Source: a virus. Taken from it: a stretch of DNA of 64,000 nt. Positions 16,185 through 50,019 of this stretch are shown one piece after another (the first letter of the stretch is position 1; each line of letters begins with the position of its first letter). The notes under the pieces are model-generated. The model was not told where the DNA came from. It searched no databases and worked only from the letters and a program-made list of their open reading frames with translations. Where the stretch lies: positions 34,002-98,001 of IMG/VR virus record IMGVR_UViG_3300022538_000960; one strand, 5' to 3'. The position numbers and the translations under genes are program-made.

Positions 16185-16217
16185 GGCGGGAGGATTTGAT
16201 GATTCCCCCGCCTTTTT
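16185..16217 (+). terminator. Hairpin plus U-tract upstream of the first giant gene
   Basis: GGCGGG-aggat..attcc-CCCGCC-TTTTT. Confidence 0.65.
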
Positions 16218-16228
16218 CATTAATACTT

Positions 16229-24523: not shown

Positions 24524-24535
24524 TGGGTGATTCTA

Positions 24536-30500: not shown

Positions 30501-30580
30501 TTGTTAACTTTGGCTCTGACAATAATTTAACAATGAGACGGAATAGTGGGCAGTGGCCGAATAAATTGAGAAATTATTGA
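24536..30580 (+). CDS. Single-chain two-barrel (DPBB) RNA polymerase fused to a DEDDh 3'-5' exonuclease; candidate virion RNA polymerase
   Basis: ExoI FIDFETFG (26054), ExoII AAWSAGFD, ExoIII HEASID (26672); beta-type MKVFAREHKGML..VDAVL (27500); beta'-type LIRIPP...MAHFDFDGD (DFDGD at 29378-29392). Confidence 0.75.
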   Translation: MPIIYDPEEDQFVDRHGYLFPTVLLGGGFLAWKKYYGSPQLGRKFSPRAFVGFVKDLDPQDYLRKYLTRPDKPELPLQRRLVETAVEYEKSKSVIEFLTDADMKTIHSIGSALPTPMKAEEIEFKRQVIRQFNPVTYDLVRSNVEKTQEVFNELLENVEESKHLQSVLKQQLERYRFKKSRLLIYSKFSEIISPEMLKSEAGHPVLMRQLWDMQKKQVQEARRLAQILQNETPETIVNLKIPKVLERIDPTTIIDERRARLQPAGKTISDTGIKLSYTNYKSFLQELRRARVDSKAVAAIESIDPLLRQHLNELAHTKPRITYALRDNAFNLQAVIKLSIQTKEEGKREIINLKIPLARGGRLRINGTGYIPQRYRGIKPLIPEIERIESDIYESVIRNLNKRFKSEVWHKVMDGDARGGERSINALIKEPIDERLIIESGRPVHDFIEQNIIQDARLGYLSPTRGFRTEDERRVVLDRFKKMQKLKLLLLEGGGKLKLPNRYAFIDFETFGTKTNYLPHQVTVGIIENGAVVDWYTGKIDPRSINTNYAFPEVDLKLSFKGKTREQVMKEFDEIGQPISKIRRDLEEFLRKNAKGGKLPVAAWSAGFDVDRVMGQQFLGAKAYLGETWDPMDLQKAIDPDVQASVSLRSVGRSRKIFVPTSSKKDLILNKKVIELFKKNRNLMSILKDKDPGFHGKLMKAVSEKQIRDLVMHEASIDVLVANKVFQDIAKDINLHSSVVMRDLNAMLLSYHRALTRSINPIGINHWTTRALGSNFPSLSPAQILQGKFTKFDIRDLAPLTRLGLDPTRPFYQQWVSAHLITKDVPDLITKTYKKIADKHGELFKSIDTLTIFNPLTAESAGLIDFQAADEMAIKMGTKEIRIPHTGKLKLIPELREYFEQIKSTRSPREREIVLSKLRQKMAKSYQKGSHFQEWLPGYTLLGEAEGFTFNTSTPLMSTIENIEYNNENKEIAIRLQTASRPEKYGHPMKVFAREHKGMLTPVEGLRSITWVDAVLRKDLVKRGRMSFMLGQIQRLTRNFQAIHSKLTPAQTFQFFETVKTFVSKINSMGGIKLDWQVNRGKLQFIDEITGKEWQKLDLGKIEKNWLQFSEGGWVKFMKEYSQKIRHMMISFGVKYSRHDPRLPYWTQGQIESMLSTEWGRRFPKKLVFADLSRAEQNAFREKIEVEMHDQLSKSELSKFFTKAELERWKSGTLMKGHLSLIQLFGGSWGVLEVTPASRAYEAGELYAKGTDVAIPRLSELVISGPVGQRLARSFTPQQRDMMNYMSNIQPLLRYGVLPESHYPIVKASEINLDPMTTHLGFKQEVGIIEDKSFRIKCVETGEIFNSLEEVPGRYLKQYTLRPMGMNAYMHPKTLESLYGQQPTIAEFNIGKKTVYVPRPALSFIRGAPAKVTKSGDPYTIVGKEIQTFKNLFVMAADYKLIEDKEAKKLAEREFFARVEDYRNMLLTDKSAYIKLTKPTIPGVQGKISMAFPPGMAKALGLPQDMFAHITTGFGVQGVSMESIGEEYFNKAMDAHQIKIGPDTGKFRGGTGSIYPNKLAFRESLSKGEELLAGTLIRIPPESKFAAFDTLIDVRRDQAAGMRLQLREAMMAHFDFDGDIAPLGFANLTPEDQEQVLKDLVNKQHIDREAHKTLAERIKKLHANVLEYETSKDAATKKQLVKELEQIQELEKTMNVNVYGQGIWVREAKPGVTPKEIKLGVGDEMRFRKMNLHQFMKGLPSIDLPGKLISLPGEELELHLSNMLTKTATAYSYRETMRMRASGRLFGGKLTQQYLDLYDQLVGKVTAFKKIPLADAEALTRAFIEPTAAESKTIMTKYLDKDAEQLWSQFKDWHTELGRLGVRRQINDLISSGMKRSPITGGQLALWGPSVELPTGKSRAILDFWGKEKFLDSFKRHGKKGGIAIALAALIAPIFLPHDNLYDKDGYPIIPTSFNISRPIFPSPIHVVPNDPTSHPVRTFRPQIMDPLLVNFGSDNNLTMRRNSGQWPNKLRNY

Positions 30581-33800: not shown

Positions 33801-36800
33801 ATTCCTCCCGAATTAGAAATTGATTCAACGGAAAGTGGACGAAATCTTCTTGGATTATTGCGAGAGAACCAAAAGCGGCTCCATATCAGAAATTCGACAT
33901 ACCCGGATTTGGAACTCCCGATTACTGCTGACTCCCCCGATTTTTGGTTTTTCCGAGAACCCTTATACAATGATGAGATTCGGGAATTTGCCAACGCTAT
34001 GGTGAATGGACATGAAGAGATGGTTATCAAATTAGCGGAAATAAATTCTGCCAACAAACAGGGGAAAGCAACTACTCATGTGGCTAAACTGAATAAAATG
34101 GCTAAAGAGGCTAGAATCAAAGACATCACGGTCACGCAAAAACTCCGGGATACTTATATGAGCTACCTAAGAGATGCAAGTGAGGATTTGCAATTCGGAA
34201 GAGACAAATCTAAAGATCTTAAAGAAAATGCAAATCTTATGATGGAAACAAGAAGGTCGCCGGTTCAAAAGTACTTAGGCCGCGCAGATGAAGCCACCTT
34301 AAGGAGCAGGCTGGCAAGAATTAAAGATGATATGAGATACTATGACGATTCGTTGAAAATTATAGATCTAGGGGGATATGAAAATATTGATTTTGAATCT
34401 GCGGCCGACCTGTTGGATACAACAATAGTTTTGATGAAAATGTGGGGGATTTATACTCCGAGGGATGCCCAGCTTGAACGGCAGATGCTCCAAGATGCTA
34501 TGGAGCTTGATGAAAATAAAACTTTAAGACTAGGTCGGGCATTCCCAACTTTCAAGTTATATTTTATAGAGAAAGATAAAGAGGAATGGCTGTTATTCGA
34601 CGATTTTTATGGATATGGCGCAGTAAAAGAGATTCAAATTAGAAAAACTCGAAAATCCGCAATTCATACCGCGGTGATCTCATTGTCGAATATTACGAAT
34701 GTGCTTCAAGATATCCATGCTCCAAGAAATGAAAATATTTCCAAATCAGAAACTGCAGAAGAGCAACCGGATGTTGATACTATGATGCTCCAAGAAGGTT
34801 GTGAAATTATGATTAAGATGGGTTATGAAAATGATTCCAATAAATTGAAAATTGTATTTCAAGGATCCATTGTGAGCATACAGCCCGGACCGGAATTGCG
34901 ATTCGTTGCACAAGGATGGGGTGCAGAACTTGCACAGCCGATCCAGAATTTTAGTATTGGAAAGTGGAGTACAATACGAGATTTTGGAGATGTGTCGACC
35001 GCAATTTTAAATAAAGTTTCCGGATTACGACATTTTGGAACAACGTATAATTTAGCAGAAATGTTTGATGATCTGCCAAATGTTCGGTATTTTTCTGATC
35101 ACAGGGAAACATATGTTGGTAGATTAAAGAATTGGGCGCTCCAGGGATTAGGGCTCAATCCCTTACTTGATCACAGGGATGATAATATTTGGATGCCATA
35201 TCATACTCCGCCTACCATTTGGCCATTGGCTCATTATGTCGAAGGGAAAGGGTTTGCATTCGATTGGAGAGTATATAATAAAACTGCCTGGGGGGCGCTT
35301 GATGAAGTATTAAAATATATGCCGGGGTACATCATAAAAATTTTACCTTATAATGAGGATAATTTACAATCTGCCAGATGCACATTATATATAGGTCCGA
35401 GAGATGGCTATTATATGGCTACTGATGACTCAGAGGTTGTCGAAAGATCCTCGGAATCTGAGAAATATCAACAAAACAGGCTGCTATGGTATAAGGATGT
35501 AAAGAATGTAACTGCGTCGACCGAAAATGAATTAATTGAGAAACTTAAGAACTTTGATATTGATTATGATAATAAGGATACTGACATTTTCAAAAATTTT
35601 GTTGATAAAAGTATCACATATCAAAATGGGGATTATCGTTTATTAAAAGCCGATCCTGGCGATCCTTGTTTATGTATAAAAACAAAAGATATTTCTGATT
35701 TCTTCACTGTTGAAACTTTGATTCAGCATCCTGGGTTAGCTTTCGCCGCCTTGATTCCTGGATTGCCACAACTTATTGCTGGGGCATCTATTGTCTCAGA
35801 AGATATAGCACGGCTGATTTCTGGTAAGGAGATTTGTTTAGATTGGGCGCCAGATCTTATAAAAAGAAATTATTTTGAATTGATTAATAACCCAAATACA
35901 GTTTCGACTACAAGACTATATGACGTGTACGATAAAATTAATTATGATAAATATGAACTAATCTATGGCACGGGTGGGTTCTTTGATCCATTAATTAATT
36001 CTAGGAATCGATTTGTTTATGGAAAAGATGAAAATCCAAGAAGACTAGCTGGAAAACGGGGGTGGAAACGTGCATGTAAGACCCATTTTATTGATAGTTA
36101 TCATCATATAATCGAAAATAATATGAAAGCTTCACGCGAAAATATGTATAATAAAGTTCATCTGATTTACCCAAAGGGTGAGCCTCAAATGGCCGCATTC
36201 GAAACACATCCCGAAGCTGGCGATTTATCTGAATTCGAAATGCTTGCAGATGATAATATAAAACCGGATATGATAAGAACTCATAAATTATTTTTCACAA
36301 ATATTGACGTAGACAGGACAAGAAATTTTGTAGATACCATTACAGGCATTCTTCAAGGAATCGGCCAGATGGTTGGACGTAATGATCGGGGCAATTATCC
36401 TGATATTCCACCTTATGCTGTTGTTGCAAATTCGATACTTGCTGAAGATCTCAAGGATATGTACGATGGAGAAATTATTATTTTGATGGATCCGAATATT
36501 GACGTCCATGATATCGTATATATCTATGATGATGTAAATGAAATTTATGGCCCAGTCGGGGTAAAAGAAGTTTATCATTATTTTTCCATGGCACATGGGG
36601 CTTATACAGTGATTGTACCTGACCTTATGTCATATCCCAGTAACTTAGAACAAACTGTCGAATTAGGTTACGCTTCAGCATTATATTCCGCAATGGTTAA
36701 GGTAGCTCTTGGTGGAATAGTATTTGGTGGGGGAGCCTCGCTTTTGGCGGGGAAATTGCTTGGTCCGTGGACCGGAGTGGGCATTGCTGGATTCACTGCA

Positions 36801-37082
36801 GCGTTTACCTATAAGCTGGTTTCATCCATAGGTTCTGGCGGAATAAATAAACTTATGGGGAGGGAAGGTTCAGAATTCGTGCCAGTATGGAGAAAAGGTG
36901 CGCCATTTTTGGCGGGAATGGATGGATACAGGAAAGACGATCTTATAGTTCATTATATGGATAAAATCACTAGGATCAGTGGGACATTTAAGCAGTTGAG
37001 TGCAAGTTTGGTGGGACTAAGGGATAGACCAGAAGGAACCCAACTGCCACTAGCACCGCTCGAATATATGGAAAGGAGATAA
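30801..37082 (+). CDS. Giant baseplate hub / tail-tip protein with N-terminal peptidase M15-type Zn peptidoglycan hydrolase
   Basis: ITSGRR..YN..IGG.STSYHLTGHAVDI...HLHIG (H-x6-D, HxH); hub-like IKMGY...VFQGSI; C-terminal Gly-rich hydrophobic hairpin. Confidence 0.7.
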   Translation: MKTYIPLEWRPGIHGGFSNPDDSRNIVQPLLDLLNYLNRRCQDRGMNHIIITSGRRGVEYNAGIGGSSTSYHLTGHAVDIAVVGRYNRWEQAMIDNWLHTVYGGQLAQVLFHSTGKGKTSTYHLHIGIRKGSEGMGPLLETESKSEGIIEGKKPGANSYSIISDNITGYTETIATQIPLDIYKTSYELIEDVAEEEKTDALVALAQKPGSFKFGTRWLTVPPTSIAFTEQNNIVGIPTLRTKGNVYWRTGINSINIDLEFLFPGLIQINDELRHIIAQIKRCPFLPLENYYLHSLIFPELKSAKPQPDIPYEFTTEEKSKHEKQTGTQDRLQPQQWRLKNKKIMDIVKSGDEKSLEEFIENGKRHGYFTQDIESQEDRERRTEQLEGLHEWMKKYRHIDVDETSGLSYRDQQMVSAIRSISVSSVPGFPRTLQMNCSCDIFNYFPYTSAFSFIEDETKNDNPVFNISKSVLFGKYYKGMLTRNNAQEFKDAFESTTKLEAVGSDERMDYLHLRYIYSEELRNRSQLAQRALLEYIECLKNYGESYEAAPAAELYENLFIFLTHPSFGGWQNLADVPGNVVDIVKELGKDAVIAGKSIIAVIKFYQDSFGEYLLGINANDEIYVIGTRRGMEYFLPLKDAVRNPQYRMRLLSYIKEYSVKISSLKYEQRDLKFGDQNSQIVGVSASMETKLVPMNILAFTAPTFQHLGNSEWVTTLTIETSNPNLIRELRMMTERLNQTALSQIAVLPEIRDYADLSAQIVEGPFFKLLGIENVIPGNFRYSTVEGKPGVFHIQIDFVQSDLQLKTYEALQAPAYFSSDFIKQFIELIPTSVLENISSKLGADWDNYHTVHEYKIGARPLTQALENYPKWSKFLFYLCKPIPSSLSGKRIPVYTFLLENFTLDQLIEKPEPISSTKKFLLSPVIGPYITAKILSEIDFSRKNLFTQTIFAPIRDLSKVLISPLQANIKFKNLFSEAIFATYRGAVGRQLKAVLNEALIGEDIPPELEIDSTESGRNLLGLLRENQKRLHIRNSTYPDLELPITADSPDFWFFREPLYNDEIREFANAMVNGHEEMVIKLAEINSANKQGKATTHVAKLNKMAKEARIKDITVTQKLRDTYMSYLRDASEDLQFGRDKSKDLKENANLMMETRRSPVQKYLGRADEATLRSRLARIKDDMRYYDDSLKIIDLGGYENIDFESAADLLDTTIVLMKMWGIYTPRDAQLERQMLQDAMELDENKTLRLGRAFPTFKLYFIEKDKEEWLLFDDFYGYGAVKEIQIRKTRKSAIHTAVISLSNITNVLQDIHAPRNENISKSETAEEQPDVDTMMLQEGCEIMIKMGYENDSNKLKIVFQGSIVSIQPGPELRFVAQGWGAELAQPIQNFSIGKWSTIRDFGDVSTAILNKVSGLRHFGTTYNLAEMFDDLPNVRYFSDHRETYVGRLKNWALQGLGLNPLLDHRDDNIWMPYHTPPTIWPLAHYVEGKGFAFDWRVYNKTAWGALDEVLKYMPGYIIKILPYNEDNLQSARCTLYIGPRDGYYMATDDSEVVERSSESEKYQQNRLLWYKDVKNVTASTENELIEKLKNFDIDYDNKDTDIFKNFVDKSITYQNGDYRLLKADPGDPCLCIKTKDISDFFTVETLIQHPGLAFAALIPGLPQLIAGASIVSEDIARLISGKEICLDWAPDLIKRNYFELINNPNTVSTTRLYDVYDKINYDKYELIYGTGGFFDPLINSRNRFVYGKDENPRRLAGKRGWKRACKTHFIDSYHHIIENNMKASRENMYNKVHLIYPKGEPQMAAFETHPEAGDLSEFEMLADDNIKPDMIRTHKLFFTNIDVDRTRNFVDTITGILQGIGQMVGRNDRGNYPDIPPYAVVANSILAEDLKDMYDGEIIILMDPNIDVHDIVYIYDDVNEIYGPVGVKEVYHYFSMAHGAYTVIVPDLMSYPSNLEQTVELGYASALYSAMVKVALGGIVFGGGASLLAGKLLGPWTGVGIAGFTAAFTYKLVSSIGSGGINKLMGREGSEFVPVWRKGAPFLAGMDGYRKDDLIVHYMDKITRISGTFKQLSASLVGLRDRPEGTQLPLAPLEYMERR

Positions 37083-37084
37083 TT

Positions 37085-37663
37085 TTGATAAAGTTCTTTT
37101 CGCGTATAGAGGAATATGATGGCAAAACCAATCAGGTCAAGGTCAAAGACGATGAAGGTCTCATCTATGTAGTTCCCCTCGCATTCGCCGGCAATATGGT
37201 AAGAATAGATGAGCATACTCCGGTAATTGTCATAATGTCAGATCAAGCGATGAGTGATGTTGATTTTGATAGTGAGCAAAGAATTAGAATTGATGCGGTT
37301 GCCATTCCGATTTATAACAAAGAGAGATTGGATCCGGATGAAGTTACTAATAAGCAGAAACAAATTGGGAAGGTAGTTGATGGAAAAATTGAATCTTACA
37401 TAGAGACTGGGGACTCAATTTATATTCATTCTGGGCGCGCCGGGAAACAAACCTTGACTGTGACTGGCAATCAAACTATAGTTGAAGATGCCAAATTCAT
37501 GAATCCAGATTTTTCATATGGCGACTTCGCCGCCCCCGAAAATTTTCTATTAAGATTTCGTCCAGATTTCCCATATATATTACCTGAGCTATTGCCAAAT
37601 GCCGATATATTTAAAAAAGCAGCGAAATTGGGCAAGGCGCTGGTGAAGCTGATGAAAGGATAA
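37085..37663 (+). CDS. Putative baseplate spike/gpV-like protein
   Basis: TTG start with AAGGAG RBS; between hub and gp25-like genes; OB-fold-like N-terminus. Confidence 0.4.
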   Translation: MIKFFSRIEEYDGKTNQVKVKDDEGLIYVVPLAFAGNMVRIDEHTPVIVIMSDQAMSDVDFDSEQRIRIDAVAIPIYNKERLDPDEVTNKQKQIGKVVDGKIESYIETGDSIYIHSGRAGKQTLTVTGNQTIVEDAKFMNPDFSYGDFAAPENFLLRFRPDFPYILPELLPNADIFKKAAKLGKALVKLMKG

Positions 37664-37664
37664 A

Positions 37665-38135
37665 ATGGAGACGGATATATGTTTGTCATACGCAGGGGGT
37701 GGGATTATTACGGATGATGGGGATCTGAAGCTGACGCAGGATTTGGATGCCTTATCAAGAGAAATCAGTAGGATAGTGCGGACAGTCAATCCCGCATGGA
37801 AAATATATCCTAATATTGGCGCGGGAATTGAGGAATTTGTTGGAGAACCAAATACTCGCGGAATCGCTTTGGAAATTACAAAGCGCCTGAATTATATATT
37901 AAACCAGAATCAAATAGCTTATCCCGGGCGCCTATTCGCGCGCGTAGTCCCATCTGGAGATGAAACCTTGATGATCTTCATTTTTTTGAAAGATAGTAAA
38001 GGAAGAATTCTTATTGACAAAGAAGTATTCAATTTTAAGGATGGTGTGGCTGGGCATATTTATGATCCTAGCGAAGTCAAAGAAATTGTGCCTAATATCA
38101 GACATGCAATTCCAACAAATCCTTATCTGCAATGA
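37665..38135 (+). CDS. Baseplate wedge / sheath initiator, gp25-like
   Basis: DGDLKL....L..EI...V.T...W..YPNIGAGIEEFVGEPN motif; synteny. Confidence 0.7.
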   Translation: METDICLSYAGGGIITDDGDLKLTQDLDALSREISRIVRTVNPAWKIYPNIGAGIEEFVGEPNTRGIALEITKRLNYILNQNQIAYPGRLFARVVPSGDETLMIFIFLKDSKGRILIDKEVFNFKDGVAGHIYDPSEVKEIVPNIRHAIPTNPYLQ

Positions 38136-38824
38136 AAAATAAATTATGGTCTCGGAAATATAATTGCTGTCAAAATTGTGGAATCATTGAAATTCCACAT
38201 AAAGGGAATGGTTTATGTATCAAATGTTATGACAAAAAGTTCCAACATGGATATTATTTAATAAATAAAGAAAACTATAAAATTAAAAATAAACGTTATA
38301 GATTGTCTCATGAAGCATATTTTATAATGAAACGCAAGGAATATCATTACCCAAACCACAAAAAATATAATGAAAAACGAAAATTGAAATATCAACAAGA
38401 TAAAAGTTACTATATAAAATATTATGAAGCAAATAAATTGGAAATTTCTAGAAAACGCAAATTAAAATATTATCAAAATAATGAATTGGAAAAAACTAAG
38501 GAATATTATCGAACTGATAATGGCAGAGAAACCAGCAAAATGAATTCCCGCAAAAGAAGAGCAAGAAAAAGAAATCTTAATTTTTGGACAAAAGAAATGA
38601 CCCAAAGATGGTGGTGGATGCTTGATGCCACTGAAGGATATTGTCCAAATTGTGGAAATTATTTTGGAATTGATAAACTTCAGATGGATCACATAATTCC
38701 ATTATCTAAAAATGGAATTCATCATATAAATAATGTTCAAGCCTTATGTCAACATTGTAATTGTTCAAAAAATAATATACTTTATAGAAAGGAGGATTAT
38801 TTTGCGCTTTCTATCAAAATCTAA
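38132..38824 (+). CDS. HNH homing endonuclease 2 (paralogue of 5794-6429)
   Basis: CPNCG...LQMDHIIPLSKNG.HHINNVQALCQHCNCSKN; very AT-rich; overlaps both neighbours. Confidence 0.88.
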   Translation: MKNKLWSRKYNCCQNCGIIEIPHKGNGLCIKCYDKKFQHGYYLINKENYKIKNKRYRLSHEAYFIMKRKEYHYPNHKKYNEKRKLKYQQDKSYYIKYYEANKLEISRKRKLKYYQNNELEKTKEYYRTDNGRETSKMNSRKRRARKRNLNFWTKEMTQRWWWMLDATEGYCPNCGNYFGIDKLQMDHIIPLSKNGIHHINNVQALCQHCNCSKNNILYRKEDYFALSIKI

Positions 38825-40037
38825 AGATCAATTGATGGCAGAGTCCAAAAATTATTTGGTTGAAAATACAGAGCTTAGAAACTTTAAACCAGGCAGTGTA
38901 ATCCGATCAATTTTGGAGTCCATAAATGGCCATATAGCTGAACAATATGAAATTATGACAATGAATCTGCTGCAAACATATATAACAACTGCAGTAGGTG
39001 ATGCACTCGATGAAATTGGGGCCCTGTTTAGTTTAACCAGAAATGAATCCCAAAGAGCCGTGGATACATCGCATAATAATTTTAAATTCTATATTGATTC
39101 ATTAACCGGCTATGTAGCTCAAACCCTATCTTCTGAGCAATATACTGCGAATCAAAACTCTGAAGTTTCAGAAACATACGTGCACGAAAATAGTTTTACT
39201 GTTCCTGCTGGAACTACAGTGTTTGCTGGTGATATTACGTACAAAACTACTGAGGATGCAGTGTTTTCTGGGTCAACTGTCGATGTATACGTACCAGTTG
39301 TGGCATCTGGATATGGTCCAGCTTTTAATATTCCGGCGTACCAATTGAAATCTTATACATTGGGCATTGAATTTTCCATAATTTCAAAATATCTGTATTG
39401 CGAAAATACCCAAACTATAAATTCTGGTAAGTTCCAAGAAAGTGATGATGAATTTAGATATAGGATAATCCATGCTCATGTTGGAAGTGCTAAATCAAAT
39501 GAAACAAGCGTCCGCTTAGCCGCTTTATCAATTCCGGGCGTGATTGATGTGATACTTCGAGAGTATGCCGCAGGAATTGGAACATTTGCAGTTCATGTTA
39601 TTGCAGAAAGCCCCATTCCAAATGTCGGCTTACTAAGTGCAGTCCAACAGGCAGTTGATTCCACAAGGGCATTTGGGATTAAGGCGCTGGCCCAGTATCC
39701 AGACTATAAAGGATTTGAAGGGACATTCAAGTTAAGATTTGTCCTTGGAACAACTACAGATGAAAAGGTTTTAATCATGCAGCAAGTCAGGATTGCGGCT
39801 GAATTGTATATAAACAATTTAGGATTCGGTGGGGAATTTATAGCTAATGAACTGATCCAAAGAATCATGGAAGTTAATGACAAGATTAAAGATGTCTCAG
39901 TTGTAGCGTTCGGAGCTGGCGATTATAACCCTTTGACAGGAATCAACGAGAACTATGGTCCGCTGATTTTTATGAATCAGACTTGTGGTCCCGACGAGAT
40001 GTGCATTGCTACTCCCGGAGGGATAGTAATCTGCTAA
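38802..40037 (+). CDS. Baseplate J/gp6-like wedge protein
   Basis: TTG start after GGAGG (38791); PGSVIRSILE, TAVGDALDEIG, VPAGT, ESDDEFRYRI, AALSIPGV. Confidence 0.85.
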   Translation: MRFLSKSKDQLMAESKNYLVENTELRNFKPGSVIRSILESINGHIAEQYEIMTMNLLQTYITTAVGDALDEIGALFSLTRNESQRAVDTSHNNFKFYIDSLTGYVAQTLSSEQYTANQNSEVSETYVHENSFTVPAGTTVFAGDITYKTTEDAVFSGSTVDVYVPVVASGYGPAFNIPAYQLKSYTLGIEFSIISKYLYCENTQTINSGKFQESDDEFRYRIIHAHVGSAKSNETSVRLAALSIPGVIDVILREYAAGIGTFAVHVIAESPIPNVGLLSAVQQAVDSTRAFGIKALAQYPDYKGFEGTFKLRFVLGTTTDEKVLIMQQVRIAAELYINNLGFGGEFIANELIQRIMEVNDKIKDVSVVAFGAGDYNPLTGINENYGPLIFMNQTCGPDEMCIATPGGIVIC

Positions 40038-41833
40038 TGTTTGAAATTTACAAAATATTACTTGACAAACATCTCGAGTATCCTAGATGGATGAATGTGG
40101 GAAGTAATCCAAAGGATCCACTCTATCAAACTATTGGTATACATAAAAACCTCTCTCTTCATATGACATCGCAGGTACAGCCATTGCTTGATAAGTTTCA
40201 TTGGAATGAACTCGAACTTCAAATTCTCATCAATGAATCCGGGGATTTCTTTGGGGATGGCTGGGAAATTAAAAATGTGCTTGATTATTCTGATTATGAA
40301 AGTGATATCCCCACGAGTCTGGAATATATTTTATCGTTTTCTGGAGAATTTCCTTCGGACATCTATGAAGATTTGTATTCAATTTGTTACGTGGATGATC
40401 TCTCCGGGTTCTTTTATGTTGCGGGTACCAGCGGTATCTATTCCATGGATCTGAGCGGTTCAATATATGATTCATATTATTATAATTCGCGCTCGGTTGA
40501 AACGGATTTGGATATATTGGATAGTATGGCGGAGTTAGACTGCACACCCATATCGGGGTCTTTTCATCTATACGATATTTATGATCTTGATGCATTTGAT
40601 AATGCAGTTGAAGTGGACCAAGATCAATATATTTTATCCGGTAATTATGTTTATGTCCCCCACGTTAGTGGGGTCTATTTGGCTAAATATGATTGTTATC
40701 TGTATCAGCCGCCAATAAGTTTGAAAACGAAGAAAAAGCCATGGTGTCACTACTCGGATAGCGGATTTTTAATATTTGGGAATTCATATGAATATGATGG
40801 TACGCATGTACATTTTGAGAATTCCGACATTGAAATTGGAGCGGATCGAGTATTTTCTATTGTTCCATTTGATTGCCGCCCATGGAAGTCATTAGAAATT
40901 TGTTACGAATATATAAGACAATATCATATATTGTGGGATTCTTCTTCGCAGATAGTAATATACCCTGTTTCAGGAGAGAGTTTTTATCCGAATCCTTCGG
41001 CATTCTCTCAGACACTGACTAGCGACACAATTGCGTATTACTATGATGGTAAATTATATGGAGACTATGTTCCCGGAAGTTCGGTATATTATAAATTTGA
41101 AATCAGTGGGGACTATTCTGAAGAAATGCTGGATATTTATCCAATAAATGGGGGGATTTTCGATCTTTTTTATTGGACGCATGGGAGTGTCTGTTATCCA
41201 GTTTCTGGACATAGTGCCCTTGAGTATTCTGAATCTGGGGATATAGATGATTATGTCATGGCTGGGGATCATTATGTTCCATCTACGATTATTCATTTTT
41301 ACGCAGATGAATTTGCGGAACAGGTTCAGTCTGCGCCACTTAGTCGGTTTTCTGTAAAAAAATTCATATATTGTGCGGGCATGACCAAATATTTTGATAG
41401 GACATTCTTTTTAACAGATGAATTAGTAATATATGATGATCATGGAAATCGTTATTACATATTGACGCAGGAACCAGAAACATTTTATGTTGTTGACGAA
41501 AATGGAAATATTTATAATCGATCATACATGCATCTGGAATACAGTCCTGAGATCAAGGCGGTTGGACTGACATCAGTTGGAGATTATTTGGTTGTCGGTT
41601 TATATTACAAGAGATTTATATTGATTTATTACAATCCGAGAACTGGAAATAAAATTGGTTATGAATTCCAATTCGAATTGGACGATCCAAAAGATTTTAC
41701 TATTGGATACGACCGACTATATATTTTGGACGATAATAGAATACACGAAATCAAATTAAGGCACGATTATGGCATATATGTAAATGATGCGACATATCTG
41801 CGAGAAAATTATAATAGAATATGGAAGGTATAG
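40037..41833 (+). CDS. Acidic baseplate/outer virion protein A (full-length copy)
   Basis: TAATG coupling to the J gene; Tyr/Asp/Ser-Gly rich; N-terminal YP.WM motif. Confidence 0.65.
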   Translation: MFEIYKILLDKHLEYPRWMNVGSNPKDPLYQTIGIHKNLSLHMTSQVQPLLDKFHWNELELQILINESGDFFGDGWEIKNVLDYSDYESDIPTSLEYILSFSGEFPSDIYEDLYSICYVDDLSGFFYVAGTSGIYSMDLSGSIYDSYYYNSRSVETDLDILDSMAELDCTPISGSFHLYDIYDLDAFDNAVEVDQDQYILSGNYVYVPHVSGVYLAKYDCYLYQPPISLKTKKKPWCHYSDSGFLIFGNSYEYDGTHVHFENSDIEIGADRVFSIVPFDCRPWKSLEICYEYIRQYHILWDSSSQIVIYPVSGESFYPNPSAFSQTLTSDTIAYYYDGKLYGDYVPGSSVYYKFEISGDYSEEMLDIYPINGGIFDLFYWTHGSVCYPVSGHSALEYSESGDIDDYVMAGDHYVPSTIIHFYADEFAEQVQSAPLSRFSVKKFIYCAGMTKYFDRTFFLTDELVIYDDHGNRYYILTQEPETFYVVDENGNIYNRSYMHLEYSPEIKAVGLTSVGDYLVVGLYYKRFILIYYNPRTGNKIGYEFQFELDDPKDFTIGYDRLYILDDNRIHEIKLRHDYGIYVNDATYLRENYNRIWKV

Positions 41834-41836
41834 ATT

Positions 41837-42256
41837 ATGGCTGAAAGCGTCGGAAATTTTAATTGGCACTACGACAATAATGGCCATTATGAGTTGTCTT
41901 GGGATCTAACCCCCGGGGCTGGATCATTATTTATTGGCATATCTGATGATCAATTTTTGGATCTTGTGGGGTGCAACAATATTGGAAATGTAACAACACA
42001 TACATTTGATGGTGACCTAAATGCATATTATGTTGTAATTTATAAATCGGATGCTGATACGGTTACAAAAATTAAAATTTATCCCCCAGGATTGCTGATG
42101 CGTGGCTACCAAGATTCCACGATTGGAAAAGATAATATTTTATATATTGCATACGGCGTATATCTATTGAAGATACAATTAAGATTTGATTTTTGCAAAG
42201 CCATCGGTGGAAAAGTATATACAAAGGAACTATATAATCGGATAAGGACTTTTTGA
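41837..42256 (+). CDS. Virion protein whose C-terminal ~50 aa match the C-terminus of protein A
   Basis: QDSTIGKDNILYI....KIQLRFDF....VYTKELYNRI vs KDFTIGYDRLYI....EIKLRHDY....TYLRENYNRI. Confidence 0.6.
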   Translation: MAESVGNFNWHYDNNGHYELSWDLTPGAGSLFIGISDDQFLDLVGCNNIGNVTTHTFDGDLNAYYVVIYKSDADTVTKIKIYPPGLLMRGYQDSTIGKDNILYIAYGVYLLKIQLRFDFCKAIGGKVYTKELYNRIRTF

Positions 42257-42257
42257 A

Positions 42258-42737
42258 ATGAATTTCTATGATCCAAGTAATGGCGATCCAATAAATGTCT
42301 CCGGGATTGTATTTAGCGGCATAGAAGGAATGGATTGTCAAATACCCGCGGGCGAATTCCAATCAAGAACTTATGATGGGGCAGGATCGGAATTAAATAA
42401 TACGAAATACGTAAATAAGTATTTTGCAGAATCGAATAGATCAATAAATAGGAATCTGTCTGAATTCGAAGCAGAATATGCGACAATTAAGATCACCGGT
42501 TTGGATGGCGATGAATATATTACTGCCCATGGGGATACCCAGACAGAACCTCCGGGTGGAAGCGGGAACGTATCAGTATATGCATTTTGCCCGGGGTATG
42601 AAGAGTGGTATGAATTAGATAATTGTGCTGGAAAATCTATGAAATTGGACATTGACGGAGGAATAGCTTATGTGGGTTTATCTGCAAAACTATTAAGGAA
42701 TGTAGATAACCCTATAATCAATTTTTGGATTTATTAA
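42258..42737 (+). CDS. Hypothetical virion protein
   Basis: Tightly packed + strand ORF, acidic. Confidence 0.55.
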   Translation: MNFYDPSNGDPINVSGIVFSGIEGMDCQIPAGEFQSRTYDGAGSELNNTKYVNKYFAESNRSINRNLSEFEAEYATIKITGLDGDEYITAHGDTQTEPPGGSGNVSVYAFCPGYEEWYELDNCAGKSMKLDIDGGIAYVGLSAKLLRNVDNPIINFWIY

Positions 42738-43564
42738 TGAACACGACTCTTAATACATTGCTTGATAAATATCCGTCATGGATGAGATTGCGAAAATTGG
42801 GGGACCCCATTCATGGAATTTTCGAATCTCTTGGGATTCATCTGCTTAATCTTGAGAGAGGGAGTAGACGTTCATATTATAGCAGTTTCTTGGTTACAAG
42901 CGATGTAGATGCTGATTCCAGTTATAATATGTATCATATTCTTTCTGGAGATATCAATGAAACGAGTATAATTTCTGGCTATTATGACACCATGGATGCA
43001 ACTGGCGAAATGGATCTCATAAAATTGGATGAGGATGAAACCGAGGATTATTATCCAACTCGCGCATTTGCAATGGAAAAAATTTTACTGCCGGAATCTG
43101 GGTATATTGCTGGACTTTGCTATTTGGATGAAATTATATCTGGCATTTTATTAGTAAGTTATGATCAATATGGTTCGGTATTTTCTTTGGATGAAAATTA
43201 TGAATCTCTGGGTAGCACTTCGTATTGCCTAGCCACGGCCGAGTTTTATCCAGAATTTGTGCCTCTTTCTGGGGATTTATATAAAGCTGATTTATTTCAT
43301 GAACCATTGACTTATGAATTTGAAGATATTTATAATGCAGGTGTTTCAATTAGTGGGGTTTTTGTGGAAGGACAATATGCATTTGCTTTTGAAAGTGATT
43401 TGCAAAGCTATGGTAGGGTTTTGGCGCACATAACTTATGAATTATGTGCATGCCCCTATCGAATTAAAACCGACATATACAAGTGGCAGTATTTTTATGA
43501 ATCAGAAATGCCAGATATATTACTGGCTAATTATATAGTGATTTCAGGATCGGAGCTATGTTAG
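42737..43564 (+). CDS. Paralogue of the N-terminal part of protein A
   Basis: LLDKYPSWM, LGIH, LCYLDEIISG, PYRIKTDIYKW align with LLDKHLEYPRWM, IGIH, ICYVDDLSG, PISLKTKKKPW. Confidence 0.65.
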   Translation: MNTTLNTLLDKYPSWMRLRKLGDPIHGIFESLGIHLLNLERGSRRSYYSSFLVTSDVDADSSYNMYHILSGDINETSIISGYYDTMDATGEMDLIKLDEDETEDYYPTRAFAMEKILLPESGYIAGLCYLDEIISGILLVSYDQYGSVFSLDENYESLGSTSYCLATAEFYPEFVPLSGDLYKADLFHEPLTYEFEDIYNAGVSISGVFVEGQYAFAFESDLQSYGRVLAHITYELCACPYRIKTDIYKWQYFYESEMPDILLANYIVISGSELC

Positions 43565-44529
43565 AGAGCGGCGTATATTTAACCTGGGACAGAATACCAT
43601 TCGAATTCTCGGATACCATCTCGGGGGATTATATCTATTTGAAGTGTGACCCATATGACGTCTTGCCGGGTGAAATTGCAATGGTGGAGTTTGATTATCA
43701 AACATTCCATTGTGAACAACATCTTGGCAACATGGTTCATATTTTTGCTGATAATCTTCTTGAGGATTCTGTGAGATGTTTCATTCCAAATCCAAATGGT
43801 AATGATCCGATTTTTTACCAGCCCGGGCTTAATTTTGTGTATGATTCTGATGTTTCCGGATCGATTCCCTTATACTCAGTCGAATTTTCTGGGAATTATT
43901 ATCCGGATGATATGTACTTATACTTGCCATGTGATGATACATACTATATTACATATTATACTCAAGAGTCCAAGACATATTATCCCAGAGGACAATCCTC
44001 ACATGAAGTCTGGCCGGTCGTTGATTATACTTGGAACGCTGACTATGAGTTGAGGAATGGAATTGTATATCCTTCGACGATATTGACCCTGTGTGATCCG
44101 GATGAACACATAAATCGGATATTGACCTCGAGTCCGCAGAGGGCATTCACGATTTACCATCAAATTTATTTCTGTGGATCTGCATTCGACATCAGGAATA
44201 GTAAATTCTTATTTATTAATCATAAAGGCCTTTTGGTAAGTGAAAGCGGAGAGAGATGGTACATAAGATATCCGGAAGGCGGGGCTATGACCGCCATTCT
44301 GAATCCTCAATCCAAGCAGACAGTAAATGGAAGGGCGGCGGAACTTAAGGAGTTGCAATGCTTTGAGCCAAATTGGGATATTACTTTTCGGAGCATGGTT
44401 AATTACCAAAATTATATCCTACTGGTCGGTGATTATGATGGAAAATTATACTTATTTGTATTGGACCCAACTAGATTGCCAAGAATTGTTAAGTGTATAG
44501 AAATCAGCAATTTAGGCAACGTTGTATAA
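43558..44529 (+). CDS. Paralogue of the middle part of protein A
   Basis: PYDVLP, PNP, EFSGNY, YPSTIL, SSPQRAFTI..IYFCG, GERWYI align with PFDCRP, PNP, EISGDY, VPSTII, SAPLSRFSV..IYCAG, GNRYYI. Confidence 0.65.
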   Translation: MLESGVYLTWDRIPFEFSDTISGDYIYLKCDPYDVLPGEIAMVEFDYQTFHCEQHLGNMVHIFADNLLEDSVRCFIPNPNGNDPIFYQPGLNFVYDSDVSGSIPLYSVEFSGNYYPDDMYLYLPCDDTYYITYYTQESKTYYPRGQSSHEVWPVVDYTWNADYELRNGIVYPSTILTLCDPDEHINRILTSSPQRAFTIYHQIYFCGSAFDIRNSKFLFINHKGLLVSESGERWYIRYPEGGAMTAILNPQSKQTVNGRAAELKELQCFEPNWDITFRSMVNYQNYILLVGDYDGKLYLFVLDPTRLPRIVKCIEISNLGNVV

Positions 44530-44559
44530 AATAAATTATAGTTGGTGAGAATCGGGATC

Positions 44560-44573
44560 TGAGCTATAACATT
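44560..44573 (+). promoter_or_regulatory. Conserved motif TGAGCTATAACATT, copy 3
   Basis: Exact repeat in a 65-nt intergenic gap. Confidence 0.6.
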
Positions 44574-44594
44574 GGTTGAAATAGTATATAAACG

Positions 44595-46262
44595 ATGGAA
44601 GAAATAACTAGTTTTATCAAAATTCCCCTGTGGAACAGTTTCGACGAATTTGGCCTTCTTTTAGGACTGGAACGGCTTCCAGGAGAAACCAATCGGGAAT
44701 TTAGGATCAGAATCTATAATGCGGGCAAGTATTTTGGTTCCTCAACAAAACAAGGAATAATAAATGCTACCAGTGTGGAATTAGGCTTAGCCCGTTATTG
44801 TTCAACAGATAAAACTTTCTTCTTTCTTACATATCAACCTCTTCTGTGGGATCCAGATACAAGAGAGCCGTTGTCAATTAGAGTCTGGGTAAATGGCGAA
44901 GAATGGCAAGATTACGACACAGATCCTACATTGAATCGGTATTTCAGACTTTGGAAGCTACCTAATGGTGAGACCACACGGGCTGTAGAAATTAGCGAAG
45001 GATTTACTAATGGCAGCAGTGTTAAAATTGTTTATTATAGAATAGAAGATGAGTCCGCAGAGCGATGGGTTGATGAGTCTATCTATCCGGATGAAACATT
45101 TATTGCGTATCACGAAGAGACTCCAACCGCCGGACAGATTGAAATTTTTGAAATAAATGACCCCGATTTTAAAGAACGATATTTTTTCGATAGTGATGGG
45201 AATCCCAATAGCCTATATGAATCAATTGTTAAGCAAATTCATCAGCTCTATCCAATTCTCTGGGGACAGTTTATATGGGACAAAACCTATTTTGATGTCG
45301 GAGATGAGAAATTTAGTGGTCTGGAATATATGCCTTCCAGATTTGATGCTTCAAAAGAATTTTTAGCATCGGGAGATTTTGGATCTGGAATTGGCTATGG
45401 GACGGATTGCGCAGTATATGATAGTGTAAATCTATCAGGAGGATATCAGTATGTACTAATCCACCCTGGATATTTTTACCTGACAAATCGAGAATACTAT
45501 CTATACGGCCAAAAATGTCGAGAAATTGATCCTTCAGGACTCTACACTTATCATAGCCCAATAGTCGTTAGCATTCCAGATGTTTCTGGAATTCCTGGGG
45601 AAAGTCTTTATTATGATGATCACTTTGGTGAAACATGGATGGATGAACGGATCCATTATCAATACTTGCACGTTTCTGATCTTTCAGGATGTCTGAGCGG
45701 GGATTACGATGGAATGTGGGATGTTCCATGGTTCCATATAGATCAGTCCGGCAATTTTACCATTAGTGGGGATCCGGCAGAATATCTGGTTGAATATGAC
45801 ATAAGTGGATATTATGAATTTGGTTTGGATTTTAATCCTTGCCATCATTCGAATATTTCGGACAGATTCCTTGTGATAAGGGAAGAACCTCTTGTTCCGT
45901 GGCGCGTGGAAGTTACATATGTGGATGGATATTTGAAGCGAGCTCCAAATCTCTATGATCCTCCATCTCCTCATCCATATCCGGATAATGATTTGACAGT
46001 CAGAGTTGATGTCTATGATCAATTTGGGGCGCTCATAACTGATCCCGAATGGACGGTGAGACTAATATTGAAATACCACAATATTATAATTGGGACCATT
46101 ACGGAATCTTTGGATGAAGATGGGAGCTTCTATCATAATTTCGAAAATATTCTCGATTTTAGTTTAACTACTCCCGAGGATATATTGGCCACTGCCACTT
46201 TATTATTGAATGGAATAGAAACCACTGTCAAGGGTTATTTAACAATACCAGTAGGATTATGA
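44595..46262 (+). CDS. Baseplate wedge-associated protein
   Basis: N-terminal WNSFDEFGLLLGLERLPGETNREFRIRI resembles baseplate wedge (gp7/gpI-like) N-termini. Confidence 0.55.
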   Translation: MEEITSFIKIPLWNSFDEFGLLLGLERLPGETNREFRIRIYNAGKYFGSSTKQGIINATSVELGLARYCSTDKTFFFLTYQPLLWDPDTREPLSIRVWVNGEEWQDYDTDPTLNRYFRLWKLPNGETTRAVEISEGFTNGSSVKIVYYRIEDESAERWVDESIYPDETFIAYHEETPTAGQIEIFEINDPDFKERYFFDSDGNPNSLYESIVKQIHQLYPILWGQFIWDKTYFDVGDEKFSGLEYMPSRFDASKEFLASGDFGSGIGYGTDCAVYDSVNLSGGYQYVLIHPGYFYLTNREYYLYGQKCREIDPSGLYTYHSPIVVSIPDVSGIPGESLYYDDHFGETWMDERIHYQYLHVSDLSGCLSGDYDGMWDVPWFHIDQSGNFTISGDPAEYLVEYDISGYYEFGLDFNPCHHSNISDRFLVIREEPLVPWRVEVTYVDGYLKRAPNLYDPPSPHPYPDNDLTVRVDVYDQFGALITDPEWTVRLILKYHNIIIGTITESLDEDGSFYHNFENILDFSLTTPEDILATATLLLNGIETTVKGYLTIPVGL

Positions 46263-48661
46263 GACTTTTAACACAAGAAAAATTATTCGGGAAGGAATGG
46301 ATTCAGGAATATCAGCAGACTGAACCAGATAGGGCGAATTTCCAGGTTGATGAACAGGATACTGGCTTCGGTTATCCACAGCCAGACATATCAATGAATT
46401 CCGATGGGTACTTTGTAATAGTTTGGCCCTCAGTGTATGGGGGTAGTAACTATGAAAGTATTTTGGCTAAGGTGTATGATGCCAATGGAGATCAAGTTGG
46501 TCCCATAATTGATGTCGTCTCACATGCGTCTGGATCGTATGGGCCATCTGTTGCCCTCAACGATGATGGAAATTTCTTAGTGGCGTGGGTCGACGAAAGA
46601 TTGAATCCGACTTTTCAAGATGTAGTGTATGCTAAACAATATGACTTAGCAGGAGATGTGGTGACGCCAGAATACCTAGTGAGCGTTGATATTAGTGGAA
46701 CCGCCACCAGAGCTTGGCCCACTAGATTGGCCTGCGGTAATGATAGATTTGTGGTTGTCTGGGGTGAATATGATAATTTGTGTGCCCAATTACGTAATTC
46801 TGATCTCGACATAGTTGGACATGAGAATTTTCCTGTAATGAGTGGAATGGAAAATTCTGACAATTATATGTTTGATGTGGATATGGCGGCTGGGGGAGAT
46901 TTTGTAATTGTCGGCGTTAGCGGCGAGGATGTATATGCCGCAACATATGATTTGGATGGAAATCGAGACCAAGATTGGGGAGATGAAATTCGATGTAATG
47001 AAGTCAATGACGAGTGTATATATTGGGACGTTGGAATTGGGATGAATGACGCCAGAGAGTGGGTTGTTGCATGGGGAAGCAATAGAGATTGGATACCAGA
47101 TGTTAATGGTCATAATATATATGCACAAAAATATAATTTCCTCACACCCCATGGAGCCAATTTCAAAGTTAATGATACCCTCGATTGGCTTTGGAATGCA
47201 TATCCTGATGCCAGCGTAGCCAATGATGGCAATTTTATTATCACATGGGACGATACAAGAAATGATCCTTGGAATAATTCGGACATATATGCTCAAATAT
47301 TCGACTCCAGTTGTAATCCGACAGCAGTGGGAAATATTCCAATTGTCGATTTTGACCAGCTTGGCGTTATATATCAAGCTAGTAGTGAAGTTGCATTCTT
47401 GAGTCCGAGTAGATACGCGGTTGCATTCGATGACGATAGAAATAGCTATGCACAACTGGGTGTATGGGCTCAATTTTCAGCTTTTAGTTTCCAAGTATCT
47501 GGTGAGTATAAGGAGATATCTTGTTGCCCATTAGCATATGTTTCCGCTGGTCAATCATTGCCAGGCACTGCATCTTTTGGAGCCGATCATTGCAATGAAA
47601 TTTATCCGAATATTACGCCTTCGACGTACTTCTTTGAAATGCCATTTGTTGAAACAGATTTGGGCGAGTTGCTAGAATTGCCATTTACTCAATTTGGGAT
47701 GCTCCCAATGCAACATTTAAATGCATTCATTTTTAGCCCCTACGCATTGTATGAGGGTCTTGAATATTCTGCCAAGTTTAATAAAATAATACTGCCATAT
47801 AAATATGAACTGAGATTTGATCACCTTGTTCGGAGTAAATCCCCCGGTGAAAATATCAAGCTCTATGATCATAATGGTGTTGAAATCCCGAAGCAATATT
47901 ATCAAGTTTTAATCTTTGACTCGTATAGGATATTTCCTGAAACATATGATCCTAGAGCATACGGGCCATTCATTGTTGGAATTTCACAAGTAGATTGTGC
48001 GAAAGCCAGATCTTGTCAGGGGAAAAACATTTGGGGAGAAGATTGGGGCACTTCGGAATTTTTAGAACGGCGACTTTGGGAATCTGAGCACCCAGAATCT
48101 GAGCGGCCGACGACAAGTGGGGATTATGATGCGGATGAGAATGAAGGATATTGGAATAGAATTGACGATGGAAGATATACTGTCGGGGCGTTTGAGGATT
48201 TCTATGTTTCTGAAGCCGGATTTTGGGGACAAGATTGTATTTCCGGCCATGTTATATATACTGATAGCGATTCAGATACAATAGATCGAGGTGTAGGCAT
48301 TGGCGATGCAACTTTCGATATTTCTGGCGTATATATTTCTGGTGAATGCTATCCAATTTCATTATTAACCTCATATAAATATTTAAGTGGTGATGATTAT
48401 TATGACGAAGAGCCGAAAAGAATTGTATTGTTACTTCCAGAATTCCTTTGTTTCCAGGATGGATTAACAGTATGGGTTGAATATAATAAATTTGTAAGAT
48501 ATATTGACCACAGAGGAGCCATAGTTGAATACTTTCATCCCAGATATCGAGAGATTATAAATCCAAGACTGTTGGCTAGGCAAAACAAAGACTATATGCT
48601 GGTGAGTCCTGATGGTGTAAGATTATATTTTGCATGGATCGTTGAGGCGCTGAATATATAA
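46259..48661 (+). CDS. Virion protein with beta-propeller-like repeats
   Basis: Repeats P.(V/I)(A/S)....G.F...W.D.R....IYAQ.(F/Y) over the first ~410 aa. Confidence 0.65.
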   Translation: MRLLTQEKLFGKEWIQEYQQTEPDRANFQVDEQDTGFGYPQPDISMNSDGYFVIVWPSVYGGSNYESILAKVYDANGDQVGPIIDVVSHASGSYGPSVALNDDGNFLVAWVDERLNPTFQDVVYAKQYDLAGDVVTPEYLVSVDISGTATRAWPTRLACGNDRFVVVWGEYDNLCAQLRNSDLDIVGHENFPVMSGMENSDNYMFDVDMAAGGDFVIVGVSGEDVYAATYDLDGNRDQDWGDEIRCNEVNDECIYWDVGIGMNDAREWVVAWGSNRDWIPDVNGHNIYAQKYNFLTPHGANFKVNDTLDWLWNAYPDASVANDGNFIITWDDTRNDPWNNSDIYAQIFDSSCNPTAVGNIPIVDFDQLGVIYQASSEVAFLSPSRYAVAFDDDRNSYAQLGVWAQFSAFSFQVSGEYKEISCCPLAYVSAGQSLPGTASFGADHCNEIYPNITPSTYFFEMPFVETDLGELLELPFTQFGMLPMQHLNAFIFSPYALYEGLEYSAKFNKIILPYKYELRFDHLVRSKSPGENIKLYDHNGVEIPKQYYQVLIFDSYRIFPETYDPRAYGPFIVGISQVDCAKARSCQGKNIWGEDWGTSEFLERRLWESEHPESERPTTSGDYDADENEGYWNRIDDGRYTVGAFEDFYVSEAGFWGQDCISGHVIYTDSDSDTIDRGVGIGDATFDISGVYISGECYPISLLTSYKYLSGDDYYDEEPKRIVLLLPEFLCFQDGLTVWVEYNKFVRYIDHRGAIVEYFHPRYREIINPRLLARQNKDYMLVSPDGVRLYFAWIVEALNI

Positions 48662-50019
48662 TGACTTGTACAAATGTAATGATTAATCCTTCGTATCTTA
48701 CGTTGGACGATTTTTTTCCTGTGGTTACTCCAATAGGAATAAATAATTTCATGGTTGTTTGGGGGCACGCCACATGGGGGCATAATGATAATTATGCTGG
48801 CATATTTGGATGACGGGTTCGATTTGAAGATACTGAGACTTCCAAAACTGTTATTCCCTATGGAAATTTGATTACATCAGGGGTTTCTTCATATGGAGCA
48901 GATAGGGGAGTGATGGCACGTTTTACCTGGGGACTTACTCCAAGGAGTGCTTCTGATTCTGATGGGAACACTTACGTGATAGTTCGACAGGGTGGCACCT
49001 ATTCTGAGGGCGGATTTATCATGTGTAAAATTAATTCCGATGGAAATGTTACTGTAGTAAGTGACCACTGGGCTCGGTGTGACAATATAGATCGCTGGTT
49101 TAAATTCAGACCTTATATTGGAGCTTGCACAACAAAGGTAATTGCTACCGGTGAACACTCTGTAAATCCGGCAGCTTCCGGCGTTCCAAAGTGGAATACC
49201 TGGGGCACATATTATAAAATTCTGGATACAAATTTGAATATTTCTAGTTGCGCCTATTTGCAAGATGCTGATGGAGAGGGTCATACATCTGTAGATTGCA
49301 ATTCAACTGGTAACTTCATAATTGTTTGGCATCATCATGGAGAAAATCATCCTTTTATCGGCCCAACAAGTATTTACCGTTCTATCAATGGTGGGGCTGG
49401 CTCAATAATTGGAGAAGGAGTATTTCCGAAAGTTGAGATAGATAATAATGGGAACCATATTGTGGCATGGGAGAATAATGGGGAGGTTTATGTTCAATTA
49501 TATGATAATGTTGGGGAATCAGTTGGTCAGAATATTCTGGTTGGATCCGTTGGCGGGATGATAAAATATTGGGAAGCTTGGATGGCGCTGATCAATCATG
49601 GATCCAATGCAATTGTTGTCCCCAGACTTTGGCCCGCGTTCGATATTGCAATTTCAAAGCAAACTGGAAATTTTGCTGTAGCTTGGAGCGACGCCCGATA
49701 TGGTGGTATCGTTGTGGTAAAATTCTACAATACTCTTGGGATTGAAATTGGTGAGCATATTGTTCCATGCCGATATCAGTTTAGTGCGAATCCATCAGTT
49801 GCAATAGATAATGAAGATAATGCGCTTGTGTGTTGGAATTCGTATCGGGAGGGTGGAGGATTCCTTGATATATATTCAAGATCCTTCAATATTGATGATG
49901 ATTCCGAGAATTATGTGATAATGGGCGGCGAGTCTGGTGGGCATCCAGGTGGGGCGGGAGCTGCAATGCCACACAAGAATATAGTTAAATTCCATTCGCC
50001 AGATGCGATAGGGAGATAA
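48661..50019 (+). CDS. Beta-propeller-like repeat protein interrupted by one in-frame TGA (48811-48813)
   Basis: ATG 48661 overlaps the upstream TAA and is in frame with the ORF-track entry 48868-50019; only codon 51 is a stop; same repeat family as 46259. Confidence 0.6.

Follow-up and report, generated by a model that had tools for sequence, protein, structure and literature searches.

The window considered here is a stretch of 64,000 nucleotides corresponding to bases 34002-98001 of the 98-kb IMG/VR virus record IMGVR_UViG_3300022538_000960, and our concern is a run of five open reading frames (ORFs) at 40037-44529, in which a protein that we call A (P0001) is followed by four smaller ORFs, P0002 to P0005. 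The completeness of the record was given by CheckV as 38%, which at 98 kb implies a phage of jumbo size, and the source is an uncultured jumbo myovirus. All long ORFs of the window lie on the + strand. The locus is a tail/baseplate module having the A-family genes directly 3′ of a Baseplate_J gene, and on the sequence searches reported below it defines a rare baseplate protein family without Pfam, PHROG or PDB-sequence match. It had been claimed, in what we call the original prediction, that A is repeated here as three separate ORFs in the order C-terminal, N-terminal and middle piece, that is, as a split and permuted gene. All five ORFs were found. The same five ORFs occur in the same order in two viral contigs, L003 and L004, whose A proteins are 83-84% identical to that of the window; in L004, A has 599 aa and there are flanking HNH genes. 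More distant relatives are the metagenome contig L005, which encodes the A-family protein P0007, and L008, which encodes an A-like protein of 721 amino acids (aa). The paralogue of A is called B, and its unsplit form in L005 is P0009. The features are listed below.

40037-41833, + strand: protein A (P0001, 598 aa), full-length family member, studied by alignments, an AlphaFold2 (AF2) model and fold searches
41684-41830, + strand: C-terminal motif of A, residues ~550-598, from alignments of family members
41837-42256, + strand: P0002 (139 aa), a variable N-terminal part of ~85 aa and then the A-type C-terminal motif
42110-42253, + strand: C-terminal motif of P0002, residues 92-139 (BLASTP E=1e-4; hhalign E=4.9e-5; A-family hidden Markov model (HMM) E=2.5e-5)
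42258-42737, + strand: P0003 (159 aa), function unassigned, between the 'C' and 'N' pieces; conserved in both L003 and L004 but missing from L005
42737-43564, + strand: P0004 (275 aa), N-terminal fission product of B, corresponding to residues ~12-280 of P0009
43558-43564, + strand: fission junction ATGTTAG, where the P0005 start codon overlaps the P0004 stop and P0005 is read in the -1 frame
43558-44529, + strand: P0005 (323 aa), second fission product of B, corresponding to residues ~285-612 of P0009; lacks the A-type C-motif

Protein A consists of a helical N-terminal region, in which a YPxWM motif lies, an Ig-like part at ~150-221, an all-beta part at ~230-598 and the C-terminal motif. The YPxWM motif is common to A and B and lies in the predicted helical N-terminus. 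The C-terminal motif is kept in 6/6 full-length family members, including P0008, where an insertion of ~400 aa precedes it, and the L008 protein, which has extra loops at this place. P0007 has 643 aa and is 31% identical to A, and P0008 has 1099 aa.

On pairwise comparison the pieces match A weakly, while the profile matches are solid. By BLASTP, P0004 matched the first 31 aa of A only (E=0.004), residues 12-236 of P0005 matched A 257-475 (E=2e-6) and residues 92-136 of P0002 matched A 552-595 (E=1e-4). An A-family HMM was then built from six full-length members (A, its L003 and L004 orthologues, P0007, P0008 and the L008 protein) with the pieces excluded, and 138 ORFs were searched. This HMM matched P0005 with E=1e-12 (HMM positions 267-448), P0004 with E=1.3e-5 (its L004 homologue with E=1e-7, HMM positions 9-245) and the C-terminus of P0002 with E=2.5e-5 (HMM positions 582-626 of 628). 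Also, the intermediate P0007 matched P0005 with E=3e-17 and P0004 with E=2e-5 over ~205 aa. The assignment of P0004, P0005 and the end of P0002 to the N-terminal part, middle and C-terminal end of A is thus borne out by profile, as is the placement of the C-end piece upstream of the others, since an own-genome search found P0002 (41837-42256) to be the only match to the last ~48 residues of A in the 98-kb record. A tail-versus-tail profile comparison placed the end of B at about residue 541 of A (E=5e-4), and an HMM of the C-motif gave no match to the B tails (E>0.5). As far as can be judged from sequence, the coverage of A by the pieces would be complementary, and this is the better-supported reading.

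Fission of the paralogue B

In L005, B is a single ORF of 612 aa (P0009), and the gene order is J (415 aa), A′ (P0007, 643 aa), P0010 (147 aa), P0009 (612 aa) and a 558-aa homologue of the 555-aa protein that follows P0005 in the window. Residues 23-280 of P0009 match P0004 with E=1e-19, and residues 285-589 match residues 10-299 of P0005 with E=9e-15. The two matches are collinear with at most ~20 residues unaligned at the junction, and the end of P0005 corresponds in position to that of the unsplit P0009. When the families were compared with each other, the B family matched the A family by hhalign with a probability of 99% (E=6e-18; B 16-531 against A 5-484), and P0009 matched P0007 with E=9e-18. 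These alignments show A and B to be ancient tandem paralogues. Because an unsplit and collinear P0009 of 612 aa exists in L005, they also show P0004 and P0005 to be the products of a true gene fission of B in the window lineage, and in this respect the claim of a split gene is confirmed. The cut falls at about residue 255 of A, shortly past a low-confidence linker of the A model (222-257) that parts the N-terminal helical/Ig-like section from the all-beta section, so that in the model the fission is near a predicted domain boundary.

The overlap at the junction in L003 is the same as in the window. In L004 there is a 51-nt insertion in the DNA alignment which leaves a gap of 44 nt between the two ORFs, with stop and start both preserved and with stops in all three frames of the spacer. 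No slippery site of the form X XXY YYZ is present at 43530-43564, so a frameshift fusion finds no support there. The stops in all frames of the L004 spacer, together with the kept starts and stops, imply that P0004 and P0005 are translated separately, without frameshift fusion. The two are probably cistrons coupled in translation. It may be noted that the 51-nt insert of L004 (14287-14330) opens with a sequence, GGAATTATGCTAAG, that nearly repeats the junction, AAATTATGTTAGAA, and then becomes AT-rich; it may be the scar of an insertion or duplication.

Selection on each ORF was estimated by the Nei-Gojobori method as the ratio of nonsynonymous to synonymous substitution rates (dN/dS) among the window, L003 and L004, with dS of 0.5-1.6 throughout. 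The values obtained were 0.08-0.14 for A, 0.10-0.23 for P0002, 0.09-0.14 for P0003, 0.08-0.14 for P0004 and 0.06-0.10 for P0005. Conservation extends to the Met-proximal N-terminal residues and the C-terminal end of each ORF, and the starts and stops are kept in all three phages. Every piece is therefore shown to be a selected and separately translated gene. The range of 0.06-0.23 for dN/dS at such dS excludes decay and misassembly, and misassembly is also counter-indicated by the independent assembly of the three phages. The original prediction had described the three ORFs as intact and tightly packed, with P0004 and P0005 now seen to overlap by 7 nt, and had argued that simple decay would not readily give this pattern; both statements stand.

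An HNH gene (PF01844, E=1e-7) was found at 12234-12980 of L004, between the homologues of P0002 and P0003, and in L004 only, which shows ongoing homing-endonuclease traffic inside the cluster.

The detached C-terminal motif and assembly of the pieces

The motif is the best conserved part of P0002, being 83-87% identical among relatives as compared with 62-66% for the N-terminal part. This N-terminal part shows no similarity to A or B, and no supported relation was found on comparing it with A 472-550. Its language-model look-alikes are FN3/Ig-like domains (scores 0.81-0.84), which serve as a lead only, and it is possibly Ig/FN3-like. P0003, which separates P0002 from P0004, was considered as a relative of A, B or P0002 and rejected, as no relation was detectable in the comparisons.

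An HMM of the motif, trained on the C-termini of both the A and the P0002 families, matched residues 100-144 of P0010 with E=1.3e-4, and this was the sole match outside the training set among the 138 ORFs. P0010 is encoded between A′ and P0009 in L005 and ends with the C-motif; the P0002 family aligned to it by hhalign with E=5e-4 over 77 collinear C-terminal columns. The unsplit P0009 is also without the A-type C-terminal motif. From these two facts it follows that the layout with an upstream C-piece is older than the fission. The claim of a permuted gene therefore holds in one part, as the sole match to the C-end of A lies upstream on P0002, and needs revision in the other, as the arrangement existed before the split. 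In each of the two deep lineages with B, a small motif-bearing ORF is encoded between A and B, and L008, where the A-like protein has its own motif, has neither B nor the small ORF.

The AF2 runs were made on A (with a 13-sequence alignment) and on A 245-598. The N-terminal ~125 residues of the A model have a predicted local distance difference test score (pLDDT) below 50. Residues 150-221 form an Ig-like sandwich, which matched the Ig-like domains found in phage virion proteins with Z of ~8, and the remainder is all-beta. For A 443-598 the top 50 VIA structural matches were all beta-propellers (Z 6.6-8.5, ~100-125 residues aligned, from models of pLDDT 58). The Foldseek matches had template modelling (TM) scores of ~0.1. 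The language-model look-alikes of A were phage Kelch, Vgb_lyase and SGL proteins (scores 0.77-0.78, again a lead only). Taken as leads, these model results suggest that the ~48-residue motif may be one four-stranded beta unit.

The best explanation, and one that we consider fairly probable as a whole, combines the A/B paralogy, the fission of B, a three-chain assembly and complementary truncation. A tandem duplication would have been followed by complementary truncations, which amounts to permutation by duplication left unfused, and a later fission of B would have given P0004 and P0005. The C-terminal motif of P0002, probably one beta-repeat or blade, would dock on the truncated beta-region of B. 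This docking would tether the small N-terminal domain of P0002, resulting in a three-chain equivalent of A that displays an extra domain. We infer that the tail of P0002 completes B in trans, and the pieces, as separate polypeptides, plausibly come together at the periphery of the baseplate by non-covalent assembly. The more specific proposal, which is tentative and only a possibility, is that B is spread in permuted order over three cistrons, with the final beta-repeat of P0002 completing P0005 and with P0004 as the anchor to the baseplate. If this is true, a circular permutation at the level of the operon would have been kept through deep divergence, the A-family proteins being ~30% identical.

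Several points weigh against this explanation. Both AF2 models are weak, with a mean pLDDT of 58 and values below 50 in the last ~40 residues, and Z of 6.6-8.5 is within the range common for unrelated models, although such values at rank 50 are higher than usual. The link between P0002 and B comes from sequence and gene layout, and the fold models lend it no support. For the last ~70 residues of B the alignment with A is of low confidence, and one MAFFT run put the end of B on the last repeat of A, which would make the coverage overlapping and not complementary. That P0010 and P0002 are orthologues is judged from E of ~1e-4 plus position, and with only two deep lineages carrying B the co-occurrence argument is thin. 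Also, a role in the baseplate is deduced for A and B from gene position only; they have no Pfam, PHROG or PDB-sequence match.

The main rival, which is possible but in our judgement unlikely, treats the C-motif as a shared docking peptide through which A and P0002 bind the same third partner or site, B having lost the motif or never possessed it, and having no connection with P0002. The position of the motif at the extreme C-terminus in proteins of very different architecture (as with the insertion in P0008 and the loops of the L008 protein) fits an attachment module, and the N-terminal part of P0002 shows no similarity that would link it to A or B. But a docking peptide does not account for the small motif ORF being immediately upstream of B, and translationally coupled, in both B lineages while absent from L008, which is without B, and it leaves unexplained why the end of B falls at about the expected beginning of the motif.

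It is improbable that the match at the C-terminus of P0002 arose by chance or by convergence of generic beta-hairpin repeats, leaving only the A/B paralogy and the fission as real. The pairwise E of 1e-4 is modest, and the strand-turn-strand repeats that make up the region resemble and easily align with one another. Yet an HMM made without P0002 still detects P0002, with E=2.5e-5 and with the match at the extreme end of both proteins; none of the remaining repeats of A and B scores; and the same motif recurs at the C-terminus of the syntenic P0010.

Very little weight can be given to the pieces being an assembly artefact or decaying pseudogene fragments of a dead duplicate. The usual sign of decay is a set of fragmented paralogues beside an intact copy, but here the ORFs are intact in all three phages, the low dN/dS goes with near-saturated dS, and the same layout, except for the fission of B and for P0003, is seen in L005, whose A-family protein is ~30% identical to A.

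Covalent joining of the pieces, whether by programmed frameshifting, trans-splicing, protein splicing or DNA inversion/recombination, is the least probable of all and hardly credible, since the tight packing of the genes and the 7-nt overlap of P0004 and P0005, which would favour it, are set against the missing slippery heptamer at that junction, the L004 spacer with its stops in all three frames, the conserved ends of every ORF, two extra genes (HNH and P0003) that lie between the 'C' and 'N' pieces P0002 and P0004 in L004, no Rfam match, to a group I/II intron RNA or otherwise, in 37000-47000 at E<=0.1, no Pfam match to an intein/Hint domain on any piece at E<=0.1, no recombinase among the neighbouring proteins scanned, and direct or inverted repeats that are at chance level (14-32 nt, 66-100% identity, without consistent placement). 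The suggestion that the products may be joined by an RNA or DNA rearrangement is accordingly dropped, and the non-covalent three-chain assembly is the form of the proposal that we retain.

Gene neighbourhood and rarity of the family

The order in the module is a protein of 2093 aa that contains lysin-like parts, two small ORFs, the HNH gene, Baseplate_J, A, P0002, P0003, P0004, P0005 and the 555-aa virion protein. The neighbours that were assigned are the following.

38132-38824, + strand: HNH homing endonuclease gene upstream of Baseplate_J (PHROG HNH / endonuclease VII families, E=3e-16)
38733-40037, + strand: Baseplate J-like (T4 gp6-type) wedge protein (PF04865, E=7e-19; phrog_6 baseplate wedge subunit, E=3.7e-33)
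44595-46262, + strand: 555-aa conserved virion protein (phrog_21059, E=1.4e-23), used as synteny anchor

The upstream neighbour of A scores 68.5 bits with PF04865 against a gathering cut-off of 21.1 and thus belongs to Baseplate_J. Its relatives align to query residues 22-434, and the true start is probably ~20 codons inside the long ORF. The HNH gene overlaps this long ORF and, by the ORF maps, is missing from the equivalent place in L003, L004 and L005. A paralogue of it is present at 5794-6429 of the window (37% identical, E=3e-41).

The synteny of the cluster holds in L003, L004, L005 and L008, and in all four the 555-aa protein comes after the cluster, with phrog_21059 also matched in L005 and L008. 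The coordinates of this family are 44595-46262 in the window, 6857-8533 in L005 (558 aa) and 13384-15894 in L008. Its N-terminus is strongly conserved (W-N-S-F-D-E-F-G-L-L-L-G-x-E-R-L-P-x-E-x-N-x-E-F-R) in the three lineages having the phrog_21059 match. A and B themselves are assigned to the baseplate by gene position only, and the 555-aa protein may be the true gp7/gp48-like wedge component.

No clear Shine-Dalgarno (SD) sequence precedes the ORF starts of the 40037-44600 region in any of the four phages, and the genes of the cluster are linked by overlaps or by spacers of 1-3 nt. This suggests translational coupling, or a host that rarely uses SD sequences. Further downstream, segments are repeated between the proteins of 46259-48661 and 48868-50019 (E of ~2e-4 to 6e-4, at two offsets), and the sequence comparison suggests a repeat-containing fibre or receptor-binding family. 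On the upstream side the virion module has three ORFs of ~2000 aa (16196-22255, 24527-30580 and 30801-37082). A ribonucleotide reductase gene (22265-24523; phrog_84, E=5e-165) is wedged between the first two, and endolysin-like segments occur in the third (phrog_20474, E=5e-61).

Searches for further members of the A family found few. In 1.8 billion representative proteins only P0007 and P0008 were obtained, and word-index searches of 5.8 billion proteins with A and the A-family profile gave only the query and one relative of 83%; when P0005 was compared with longer proteins in this index, nothing was found. The region had no match to GenBank phages by megablast, nor did P0007 by tblastn against 50,697 GenBank phage records. 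No Pfam match at E<=0.1 and no PHROG match were found for A and P0002-P0005, and a profile search of PDB sequences with A and B gave none. The locus of P0008 was sought in viral and genome contigs and not found. When profiles of Baseplate_J and of the 555-aa protein were used for scanning, only L008/L009 and L010 were gained. By these searches the A family is very rare and metagenome-only. The proteins downstream of Baseplate_J in Moorella phage MTATph1 were also considered and rejected, as they are not members.

Comparison with known systems

The position of A resembles that of T4 gp7, P2 gpI, Mu gp48 and TssG of the type VI secretion system (T6SS), as A is directly downstream of a gp6/J homologue and has a predicted helical N-terminus. 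It differs in that no sequence or fold match to these proteins was obtained, and the 555-aa phrog_21059 protein could equally be gp7-like.

Completion of a beta-propeller in trans is known from the open propellers of Sec13-Nup145C and Seh1-Nup85. The likeness to Sec13-Nup145C is at the level of a proposal, in which a beta-repeat domain one unit short would be filled by a unit of another polypeptide. The oligomeric propellers Ph1500 (PDB 2m3x) and RSL lectin (7p2j) were among the fold matches of A. Unlike the known propellers, the propeller-like fold of A 443-598 comes from low-confidence models with Z of 6.6-8.5. If completion in trans is true, this would be a natural virion fold made of three polypeptides that are encoded out of order. 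It would inform how baseplates gain subunits (by duplication, complementary truncation and fission) and how accessory domains are tethered by donation of a domain or repeat, and it would bear on the annotation of 'fragments' beside intact paralogues.

For DNA methyltransferases and other proteins a model is known in which circular permutation results from tandem duplication followed by complementary truncation. The C-piece followed by the N- and middle-pieces, beside an unpermuted paralogue, is the arrangement expected from 5′ loss in one copy and loss of the 3′ end of the next. Here the pieces are unfused, and the N-terminal part of P0002 has no shown similarity to the family, so that its origin by duplication would be an inference.

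Fission of genes in phages is known from the nrdA of Aeromonas phage Aeh1, which is split by mobE, and from the T4 topoisomerase gp39/gp60. The present case is like these 'genes in pieces' in that an ORF which is single in a relative is found as two adjacent and selected cistrons in the window, with HNH genes nearby. It is different in having no endonuclease gene at the P0004/P0005 junction in 3/3 phages, in that B is structural and not enzymatic, and in that a third ORF upstream carries the C-module of the family. Even without completion in trans, the locus offers a clean and datable case in which a structural gene was split near a predicted domain boundary, and the lineage is one where homing endonucleases abound.

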